From NCBI RefSeq assembly GCF_006345805.1, contig NC_043011.1, positions 67,654,464 through 67,718,463 of the forward strand: a stretch of 64,000 nucleotides of DNA, written 5' to 3'. This DNA comes from Octopus sinensis (lineage: Eukaryota). Numbering within the stretch: position 1 is the first letter of the stretch; every line of letters starts with the position of its first letter. The notes under the pieces were generated by a model. The model saw only the letters and a program-made list of their open reading frames with translations. It was not told where the DNA came from and ran no database searches. The position numbers were made by a program, and so were the translations under genes. This document shows positions 56,313-60,251 of the stretch, one piece after another.

Positions 56313-56552
56313 GCAGGTTGGCGGTGAAACATAAAATAAACAGGTTTAGTAATATTTTGGAAAAAGTGTATTTCAACAGGAATCTAAAAGTGCACTGCTG
56401 GTTCATTTGAGACAGAGAAAATAGATTACAGGTGGAAGAGAAAATATTTCTAGTATCGGATTACAACTATTTTGAGATGGAATATTTTTAAAACTGAAAG
56501 CGCTTTTCTAAACGATCATAATTTTTGCAGTCGAAAACCGAGAAAACCAGGC

Positions 56553-57181
56553 TTCGTCTCTAGCTGGCTTTAGACACAATATCAGTGTCCTTGGAGTATT
56601 TGCAAAGGGAGGCTTCGTTCCTCGCAAGCCTGAGGGATACGCTCGAACTAGTTTCGGGATTGTTGTCCCTCGTCAAGGGATGGCCTCCCTTTGCAAATAC
56701 TCCAAGGACACTGATATTGTGTCTAAAGCCAGCTAGAGACGAAGATCTCTTGGGGCTATAAAGCTACAGTAACACCCCCTCCCCAATATGGTTAGCCATG
56801 ATAAGATGGCTTCTATACTTTACATTATCGAGCGATTACTGTTTCAATCTCATTCTGAGATTTAATTATGCTTACTGTTCGTTTTTCGACATCAGTGGCA
56901 GACGCCATTAGAAAAACTTATATATATTTGCAAAGGAGCCTTCTGTTTCATCGCTACCTGGTGGTTACCGCCCGTTGACGAGGGACAACAATCCCGAAAC
57001 TAGTTCGAGCGTATTACTCAGGCTTGCGAGGATGGGATGGCCTCCCTTTGCAAATACTCCAAGGACACAGATATTGTGTTTAGAGCCAGCTAGAAACGAA
57101 GATCACTTGGGGCTATAAAGCTACAGTAACACCCCCTCCCCAATGTGGTTAGCCATGATAAGATGGCTTCTATACTTTACA
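56553..57181. repeat. Non-coding tandem and inverted repeat carrying a U3-variant hammerhead (56969-57011, +)
   Basis: Direct repeat 56677-56825 / 57034-57181; inverted 56553-56612 / 56683-56743; cgcccg-TTGACGA-ggga caacaa tccc-GAAA-ctag-TT-cgagcg. Confidence 0.75.
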
Positions 57182-57268
57182 TATATATATATATATATAC
57201 ATATATAGATATACATACATATATATGCATATATATATGTATATCTATATATACCTATCTATATATAT

Positions 57269-59652
57269 AACAATTGCAGCGTGGAAGGTGTTTGTAAGCC
57301 ATTTAAGAAACACACAAAAGCCGTTCGATTCACTTCAACATTTAAGTTTAATTTGCCAAAATATTTTCGTCGCTAAAATCCGCGACCTGTTCACTGACAA
57401 AAATCCGTGCTGCATCTGAGAAAGTAACAGTTAGTTCGTCATATATATGTACGTATGTATGTGTGTGTGTATGCATACACATATGTATGCACGTATGTAT
57501 GTATGTATGCATATACGTACATACGCCTGTGTATGCATGTATGTATGTATGTATGTATATATGTATGTGTGTGTATATGCACGCACATACACACTATAAA
57601 CATAAAGCTATAAACCTGTAGTGATGGATAGATGTAGAGTGACCATTCATCACAGTAATATCAAATTTCAACTTCCCCCGCCGAAGCCAGGAAGTGATTT
57701 ACGACCCTCACTCCCAAAACTATACCCTAAAACCTATTATCAGATATTTATCTCTATATCACAGAACTTTTGTTTTACTATTGTGCGTATGTATGTATGT
57801 ATGTGCGTATGTACGTATGTGCGTATGTATGTGCGTATGTATGTATGTATGTATGTATGTGTGTGTATGTACATACGTACGCATGTGCGTATGTATGTAT
57901 ACGCGCACGTATGCATGTGCCCATGTATGTGTGTGCGTACATGTACGTGCGTATGTACGTGTGTATGCCCATACGTAGGTATGTATGTATGTTTGTACCC
58001 ATGTGCTACGTATGTATGTGAGTGTCTAGGAGAATGGGCAGACGTGTCTGTGAGAGTGTGTACATGTGTATGTGTATGTGAACGTATGCCCGTGTACTGG
58101 CATGTGTCCGTCCAAGTTGTGTACATGACTGTTACTTTGTTGAAGGTTGTATACATATTCACATATATGTTTGTATAGACGCACACACATATATATATAT
58201 ATGTTTGGGTGTGTTTTTGTTCCTCTCATCACCGTCTAACTGTGAATGGATACAACGCCTAAGTGCAACTGTACGTATCAAACAACGTACGCTCATACGG
58301 TTATATATAACTGCACATACGCATTGCAACCTGTACGTAAGGATTACAAGTAAACGAGTTCTACAAGCAACAAGCAACAAGTTCTGGAATAGGTTAGAGA
58401 AGGACACACAAAAGGATGAGAAACGTTACTTGGTACGATAATACGATAACAGGAGATTTCACGGAGTAATGTTTGTTGACGCCACACCTAAGAATGAGCT
58501 AAGTAAGGCATTCAAGAAAATCCTGCGCACTACGGGACTAAAAATTAAAGTTGTAGAAAAGACAGGTAGGACTATCAAATCGGCATTATGCAGATCATAT
58601 CCATTTGATAGAATCACCTGTCAAAGTAATTGTGCAGTATGTTCGACAAATCCACATGTAAATTGCAAAACCAAGGGCACTGTATACCAGATTAAGTGCC
58701 AAGAGAGAGCTTGCGCGACTAACCCAGAATCATACATAGGTGAGACTTCTAGAAGCATCAATGATAGGTTCAAAGAACACCTGGACAACTACATTGAAAG
58801 GAAGCCAAACTCCATCTTCTACCAACATGCTATAGCCTGCCACAAAGGATCCTTAGGGAAACTTAAGTTGAACATCCTATCAACACATCCCACCGATGCA
58901 ATGTTGAGACAGGTCACAGAAGTTGTTTGTATACAATAATACAAACCTACTCTCAACCGAAAGTCCGAATGGAATAACATCCAGATCCCATTCAGAAGGA
59001 CTATTCTATAACCACCCCTCTCTCTCTCTCTCTCTCTCGTTTACTTGTAGTACTTACATACAGGTTGCAATGCGTATGTGCAGTTATATATAACCGTATG
59101 AGCGTACGTTGTTTGATACGTACAGTTGCACTTAGGCGTTGTATCCATTCACATTTAGACGGTGATGAGAGGAACAAACACACACCCACACATATATATA
59201 TATGTGTGTGCGTCTATACAAACATATATGTGAATATGTATACAACCTTCAACAAAGTAACAGTCATGTACACAACTTGGACGGACACATGCCAGTACAC
59301 GGGCATACGTTCACATACACATACACATGTACACACTCTCACAGACACGTCTGCCCATTCTCCTAGACACTCACATACATACGTAGCACATAGGTACAAA
59401 CATACATACATACCTACGTATGGGCATACACACGTACATACGCACGTACATGTACGCACACACATACATGGGCACATGCATACGTGCGCGTATACATACA
59501 TACGTACATGCGTACGTATGTACATACACACATACATACATACATACATACATACATACATACGCACATACATACGCACATACATACATACGCACATACA
59601 TACATACATACATACATACATGCATACATACATACATACATACATACATACA

Positions 59653-59683
<31 letters not shown>

Positions 59684-59887
59684 GTATATGCATACATACA
59701 TACGTACATATATATGACGAACTAACTGTTACTTTCTCAGATGCAGCACGGATTTTTGTCAGTGAACAGGTCGCGGATTTTAGCGACGAAAATATTTTGA
59801 CAAATTAAACTTAAATGTTGAAGTGAATCGACCGGCTTTTGTGTGTTTCTTAAATGGCTTACAAACACCTTCCACGCTGCAATTGTT
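57269..59887 (+). mobile_element. Penelope-like element 3' part: GIY-YIG endonuclease between long inverted pLTRs
   Basis: ORF 58469-58939: C..C..C..GTVYQIKC..SYIGETSR..RFKEH..QH..H..MLRQVTE; arms 57269-58358 / 59036-59887. Confidence 0.9.
59755..59804 (+). ncRNA. Type-I hammerhead with G3-C8 swapped core (inverted copy 57352-57401, minus)
   Basis: tttgtca-GTGAACA-g-gtcgc ggatttta gcgac-GAAA-atat-TT-tgacaaa. Confidence 0.78.
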
Positions 59888-59938
59888 TTCGTTTCAGCAC
59901 ACGATCTCAGATCAAATTACTTGCTATGCGAGTACTCT

Positions 59939-59985
<47 letters not shown>

Positions 59986-60251
59986 TGGAAGGTTTGAAGA
60001 TGATGTACAGGTATTTTATATTAGAAGAAATGAGGTACTCAGAAATTCGGATGGTTTTATATTTACAGATATTTATTACATGTATTAGCGCTTTCTCCCG
60101 TTCTAGTGGGGTTTTCAAATCGAACTAAGTTCTTGTGTGAAAAGTTTTGACCATTTTATAGTGTTATTGAGTTTGTAGTGGTGGGGAGGAATATAAGACA
60201 GTACAAGAGGGTGATGGATGAGGAGAAAGTGAGAGAGAGAGAGAGAGAGAG

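Follow-up and report, generated by a model that had tools for sequence, protein, structure and literature searches.

Introduction

The closest described relatives of the motif studied here are the minimal hammerheads of Penelope-like retrotransposons (PLEs). For those with a short palindromic helix III, Cervera and de la Pena 2014 (PMC4209133) put forward a dimer model. The same paper reports that PLE hammerheads cleave poorly in vitro, leaves other functions possible and describes a Drosophila Penelope intron as ending at helix I. In our hand count of the 56 motifs in its Fig. S3, positions 3 and 8 were C3-G8 in 53, U3-A8 in two and U3·G8 in one; a purine at position 3 occurred in none of the 56, in a figure whose descriptors could not find one. 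U17 was present in 24 of the 56, and the oyster entry carries a UUU triplet.

The pairing of positions 3 and 8 has been probed with engineered ribozymes. The C-to-G/G-to-C swap was the sole rescue that a full double-mutant scan recorded in this core region (PMC9901934), and a review also reports that the C3G/G8C swap restores activity (PMC8495972). In the hammerhead of the anole Poseidon PLE, single mutants at 3 or 8 were dead and the double mutant was partly rescued, and cleavage required the PLE protein; according to the accessible text of that study, core mutants had no effect on insertion in vitro and no RNA-seq read had either of its ends at the cut site (PMC11167929). For viral type I hammerheads, translation driven by cleavage has been shown (PMC13725137). 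PLE hammerheads cleave poorly in vitro and were dispensable for insertion in the one reconstituted system, and any role in vivo is putative. Short-stem-III PLE hammerheads were surveyed on a large scale by Lunse et al. 2017. Neither G3-C8 nor A3-U8 was found as a natural hammerhead state in the literature searched, including the accessible parts of PMC10085705, PMC7229834, PMC6155905, PMC6765202 and the Craig supplement; Lunse et al. 2017, Przybilski and Hammann 2007 and the Perreault supplements may contain them.

Results

A minimal type I hammerhead with an inverted core pair

The window, that is, the whole 64-kb stretch of DNA analysed, holds a minimal type I hammerhead inside a PLE pseudo-LTR (pLTR), and its core reads GUGAACA (Table 1). 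The anatomy given in the earlier note (a 7-bp stem I, a 5-bp stem II, the GUGAACA core and GAAA-ATAT-UU) was confirmed. The motif combines the open stem I, closed stem II with G10.1-C11.1, GAAA, A15.1-U16.1 and H17 of type I PLE-minimal hammerheads with both the extra nucleotide that separates position 9 from 10.1 and the short palindromic helix III of that form. The literal CUGANGA core is absent; the Watson-Crick complementarity of positions 3 and 8 is present as G3-C8.

Table 1. Features of the hammerhead motif and of the insertion that carries it (window positions).
Feature	Position	Strand	Remarks
Hammerhead motif	59755-59804	+	core GUGAACA
Stem I	59755-59761 with 59798-59804	+	7 bp
Core, G3 to A9	59762 to 59768	+	G3 = 59762, C8 = 59767
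G3 and C8	59762 and 59767	+	tertiary Watson-Crick pair, flipped relative to C3-G8
Extra G between positions 9 and 10.1	59769	+	missing from the earlier note
Stem II	59770-59774 with 59783-59787	+	5 bp, G10.1-C11.1
GAAA, then ATAT	59788-59791 (GAAA)	+	U16.1 = 59796, U17 = 59797
Helix III, 6-nt palindrome AAUAUU	59791-59796	+	
Predicted cleavage site, 3' of U17	59797/59798	+	hammerhead numbering applied to the sequence
Whole insertion	57269-59940		inverted pair of 5'-truncated PLE copies, TA microsatellite on both flanks
Inverted 5'-truncated arm	57269-58358	-	3' UTR + pLTR
Second hammerhead copy, in the inverted arm	57352-57401	-	one base different, U·G wobble in stem I
Broken, 5'-truncated RT-thumb/linker/GIY-YIG remnant	58374-59011	+	between the arms
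PLE 'tail'	59888-59940	+	right arm only
Likely ORF start within the pLTR	59854-59931	+	aligned with the family B N-terminus in tandem L318
Inferred capped pLTR transcription start	59739	+	5'-end pile-up, usually one untemplated G

The fold of the motif is more stable than that of shuffled sequences (z = -3.4; 1 of 200 shuffles was equally stable). When a loose descriptor with G3 fixed was run over the window, it returned two sites, the motif and its inverted copy, against a chance expectation of 0.10. In the window, not one Rfam family reached its gathering score, and no hammerhead family appeared among the 150 weak matches listed (169 in total) for 57200-60000. The expectation that CUGANGA searches would miss this core thus holds, and the Rfam hammerhead models miss it too. 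The UUU triplet, which had been called unusual, is not, since U17 is frequent among PLE-type hammerheads and UUU itself occurs in the oyster (Cervera Fig. S3, PMC4209133).

Two predictions count against a reading in which cleavage is selected. Folding of the window motif predicts a G3·U17 pair that lengthens stem I (P = 0.67). Additionally, the dimer with the active helix III is predicted at -27.2 kcal/mol and is disfavoured compared with two monomers (-29.4) and with dimers joined by longer palindromes (-29.0 and -29.6).

One inverted insertion of a probable Neptune-clade element

The segments 57269-58358 and 59036-59887 pair in inverted orientation as the two arms of one insertion. The left arm retains a 207-nt UTR segment (57581-57787) that is absent from the right arm. 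The remnant between the arms has indels near its 5' end and an in-frame stop at 58937-58939, and its Pfam GIY-YIG match (E = 2e-4) falls just short of the cut-off. At the likely ORF start, the similarity to the family B N-terminus was equalled by 3 of 500 shuffles. We considered whether the two window copies could be independent direct pLTRs of a tandem element, and this was ruled out by their arrangement as arms of one inverted insertion. Because both arms belong to one insertion event, the two hammerheads are one observation. The earlier note had read GUGAACA in both copies, which is correct for the core, but the second copy has a one-base difference and is read from the minus strand, and the two lend each other no independent support.

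A member of the family (locus L101) has an open frame of 1,042 aa that encodes a reverse transcriptase with YVDD and a GIY-YIG-type C-terminal end. Its translation contains a CX3CxxC linker, within the CX2-5CxxC range of Neptune, and the CCHH endonuclease motif, and it reads DKS where Neptune has DKG; the features of Hydra (no CCHH, a CxCX5C linker and a DKT motif) are lacking. The single ORF that joins a reverse transcriptase to a GIY-YIG endonuclease at its C-terminus, the pLTR, the inverted 5'-truncated copies and the one-sided tail are those of an endonuclease-bearing (EN+) PLE. Pfam gave no match to the long L101 frame; 183 protein homologs were found, of which the best in the database is labelled Octopus vulgaris and has 99%-identical copies in the studied genome, which makes an octopus the likely host. 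By the motif definitions of Craig et al. 2021 (PMC8557442), the host element is likely to be a PLE of the Neptune clade. No relative was found in viral contigs.

Most copies of the family are pLTR fragments of 150-200 bp, often in head-to-head inverted pairs (for example, G000:C1:2860562-2860637), and these fragments behave like a pLTR-derived SINE. No same-strand pLTR-ORF-pLTR tandem of the studied family was present among the loci examined; direct tandems do occur for family B (L318) and at L167.

State of the 3-8 pair within the family

The genome was scanned for the exact motif with positions 3 and 8 left free. This yielded 6,114 matches, 5,567 (91%) of which are G3-C8, and genome-wide there were 0 copies of the canonical C3-G8 form. 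The natural compensatory variant proposed in the earlier note is therefore the state of the whole family. Among 100 of the matches listed (6,114 in total), the copies that are not G3-C8 comprised seven single changes, and such single changes at 3 or 8 are the independent decay of dead copies after insertion, as expected. Chance alone would give about 2.4 double revertants, and 0 were observed (P = 0.09). Dead copies only mirror the master element, so within-family fixation is uninformative on selection; we rejected it as proof of selection, since it reveals only the state of the master element. The fixation check suggested in the earlier note confirms the family state and is uninformative as a test of selection. 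As to its refuting condition, that the two positions vary independently, they decay independently among the dead copies of the family and are coupled across families.

In 69 copies anchored 3' of the core, G3 differs in two and C8 in three, whereas three loop II positions differ in 27-40; the latter mark a second subfamily with an unchanged core. In contigs of four runs from four organisms, one run with low cover, no variant reached 3% at G3 or C8, and loop II was variable while positions 3 and 8 were not. An older lineage has the core GUGACCA, also G3-C8, in at least 13 distinct places among the matches listed. Seven of these loci were compared with the pLTR 3' of the hammerhead: identity was 68-75% in four and 89% in one, and two gave no match. 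In this lineage, G3-C8 persists through about 30% divergence of the flanking pLTR sequence.

Covariation of positions 3 and 8 across related families

In the studied genome, families B, C and E carry homologous hammerheads 3' of the endonuclease. The pair is C3-G8 in family B (95 of 100 among the matches listed; 3,492 in total) and in family E, and U3-A8 in family C (93 of 100 among the matches listed; 1,910 in total). The studied motif occupies the position of canonical CUGANGA hammerheads in sister elements, and its stem II is homologous to theirs, with compensatory changes.

Scans of metagenome loci left positions 3 and 8 unconstrained. The sequence extends to the end of the endonuclease in 22 of 78 loci. 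A hammerhead is present in 12 of the 22 (11 distinct): C3-G8 in five, U3-A8 in four and A3-U8 in two. The motifs of L149, L150, L160 and L168 were chosen by eye, with a weak stem I in L149 and L160 and loss of G12 in L168. Ten of the 22 loci had no hammerhead (six with at most 250 nt downstream and four with more room) and were excluded from the counts. The A3-U8 motifs lie 3' of PLE endonucleases at L160:2810 and L167:1512; in the L167 tandem, an ORF lies on either side of the motif.

Among 17 aligned related hammerheads, the 3-8 pair is C-G in seven, U-A in five, A-U in two, G-C in two and U·G in one, and it is unpaired in none. Nine rows changed on both sides, which 0 of 500 shuffles matched, the shuffle ignoring kinship, and slid controls scored lower. 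A protein tree of 15 families requires at least seven changes at position 3, seven at position 8 and seven for the pair; therefore, every change is coupled. G3-C8 and A3-U8 fall on separate branches of this tree. Starting from C3-G8, U3-A8 takes two transitions and G3-C8 two transversions. Also kept in the aligned families are U4, G5, A6, G12-A14, A15.1-U16.1 and a non-G at 17. Selection for 3-8 pairing is likely on the basis of this cross-family covariation. The claim that the variant was selected for function consequently stands on the comparison between families, and the argument from two copies, which are one insertion event, does not.

We also considered whether avoidance of a 3-17 trap explains the rarity of a purine at position 3. 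This fits the studied family, which has U17 and not C17 (cf. PMC3884650), C17 being predicted to trap G3 in stem I, but is weakened by the complementary positions 3 and 17 in L149, L150 and L167.

Several other core variants were seen. Family B (81 of 100 among the matches listed; L121 and L131-L135) and metagenome locus L147 have C rather than A at the otherwise conserved position 9; C9 followed by the extra G is possibly another tolerated core variant. A second hammerhead family adjoins the insertion at 56552-57182, with a hammerhead at about 56969-57011 on the plus strand and a truncated inverted copy near 56640-56679. It is a non-coding, retrozyme-like tandem repeat of about 357 bp, with 3-4 units in L386, and a U3·G8 wobble occupies its core in 96 of 100 among the matches listed (175 in total); this may represent a step between C3-G8 and U3-A8. 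The amplification of this repeat and of C9 in family B indicates that imperfect cores can spread. Unrelated hammerhead-like motifs at L113:5331, L062:616 and 1087, L070:4106 and L108:734 show that the genome holds several more hammerhead-bearing repeat families.

Copy ends and the inferred transcription start

Ends were mapped at 96 anchor sites, using the loci of 100 places among the matches listed (9,356 in total). At the 5' side, eight copies extend upstream past 59725, and 66 start at 59735-59759 with a peak at 59739. In 13 of the 17 copies that stop at 59739, the end is preceded by G, as opposed to C in the template (P = 1e-5 against 25%), and the inverted arm could have templated some of these G. 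The extra G is presumably cap-derived, given the behaviour of reverse transcriptases. We infer that 59739 is a capped transcription start. With the likely start codon at 59854, the hammerhead would then be part of the 5' UTR and its predicted cut would lie 59 nt downstream of the cap. We also considered a splice junction for the 5' pile-up, but bases -2/-3 are heterogeneous and no upstream donor fits; a capped start fits better. A branch-point-like motif, a pyrimidine run and an AG are present at 59720-59743, the AG preceding 59741, near the inferred start.

The 3' ends are bimodal, at 59883-59889 (33 copies) and 59933-59945 (51 copies), near 59887 and 59940. Sequence upstream of the predicted cut site is present in 91 of the 96 sampled copies, which hence came from uncut RNA; this argues against a required role of cleavage. 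No convincing pile-up marks a cleavage footprint at 59798 in the genome, where three of the 96 copies begin. These three start exactly at 59798 and were rejected as cleavage products, as they are inversion junctions explained by microhomology of stem I.

Discussion

Overall, we suggest that the 3-8 pairing is probably kept by selection for slow, dimer- or protein-assisted self-cleavage, predicted after U59797. In the putative mechanism, transcription would start at about 59739, so that the 5' UTR would contain the hammerhead, 50 nt upstream of the ORF start at 59854. The helix III palindrome AAUAUU would form only between two strand-swapping motifs, as in tandem read-through transcripts. It may perhaps be that cleavage of such tandem transcripts frees unit-length RNA, while capped transcripts with a single motif stay uncut and are copied into the short insertions. 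The inverted arms in the window are parts of one dead insertion and would fold onto each other, not into the usual dimer.

Much of what is seen inside the family would also suit a relic, in which G3-C8 drifted in the master element and hitch-hiked to high copy number, with retrotransposition having no need for cleavage. The sampled copies stem from uncut RNA, mutant hammerheads leave in vitro insertion intact in the anole PLE (PMC11167929), U3·G8 and C9 variants have been amplified, changes at 3 and 8 are uncoupled within the family, and an inactive fold might be trapped by the predicted G3·U17 pair. However, drift from a pyrimidine at position 3 to G3-C8 takes two transversions, yet none of the 17 family-level pairs is mismatched, all seven minimal changes on the tree are coupled and the pair has outlasted about 30% divergence of the flanking pLTR; we regard the relic as improbable. 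In another alternative, the 3-8 pair would be selected for the folded shape as a binding or regulatory element, recognized by the PLE protein or acting on translation from the 5' UTR, with little or no cleavage. The location of the motif after the inferred start site and ahead of the start codon would suit such an element, as would the poor in vitro cleavage of PLE hammerheads, for which other functions are possible (PMC4209133), and the lack of RNA-seq ends at the anole cut site in the accessible text of PMC11167929. We nevertheless consider it unlikely: the conserved residues are those of the catalytic core, the 3-8 pair belongs to the active fold (PMC9901934) and the anole motif does cleave when the protein is present (PMC11167929).

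It is very improbable that the hammerhead reading is itself wrong, with the motif a stem-loop that arose by chance or with G3 and C8 dictated by an overlapping code. That the Rfam hammerhead models miss the motif and that a 19-codon upstream frame overlaps it would agree with such an error, an idea that the canonical C3-G8 homologs of families B and E largely refute. The sister-element position and homologous, compensated stem II, the low chance expectation in the window and a likely main ORF that begins 3' of the motif all speak against it as well. Returning to selected self-cleavage, a more speculative extension, which we think somewhat doubtful, is that all four Watson-Crick forms of the 3-8 pair occur naturally in Neptune-type PLE hammerheads. 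Those with a purine at position 3 would have arisen independently and would be invisible to CUGANGA and Rfam searches, hiding thousands of active ribozymes per genome, and the coupled change would point to cleavage 59 nt after the cap, just 5' of the ORF, as a selected switch between capped template and cut forms of the RNA.

The 3-8 pair and its swap were already established structurally, which limits the surprise; G3-C8 here is a natural, family-wide state. The 3-8 pair is part of the active fold, and its repeated coupled change offers evolutionary evidence for selection on that fold in PLE hammerheads. Additionally, over 5,500 copies of one family in the studied genome escape ribozyme searches in which CUGANGA is fixed or U3-A8 is the sole alternative, so that for some PLE families the hammerhead counts, and calls of 'no hammerhead', may be in error. 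The G3-C8 family provides a ready test case for dependence on the 3-8 pair.

Compared with known systems, the motif shares with the PLE minimal hammerheads (PMC4209133) the type I form, the extra nucleotide between 9 and 10.1, G10.1-C11.1, the short palindromic helix III, the pLTR position and the frequent U17. It differs from their consensus in that the extra nucleotide is G instead of H. Natural U3-A8 is described there for schistosome PLEs, whereas we found G3-C8 here and A3-U8 in two relatives. Natural 3-8 covariation was also reported by Perreault et al. 2011, who name only U3-A8 in the accessible text (PMC3088659). The host family shares with the Neptune EN+ PLEs of Craig et al. 2021 (PMC8557442) a C-terminal GIY-YIG with CCHH, the CX3CxxC linker, inverted 5'-truncated copies, the one-sided tail and TA-microsatellite targets, but has DKS instead of DKG. 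The clusters of 3' ends match the two internal RT starts and the tail of Frangieh et al. 2024 (PMC11167929). The same swap is present in the C3G/G8C hammerheads of PMC11167929, PMC9901934 and PMC8495972, where it partly restores cleavage that either single change abolishes; the earlier note had also stated that the double swap can rescue activity. Those ribozymes are laboratory mutants, whereas G3-C8 here is the natural state in more than 5,500 genomic copies.
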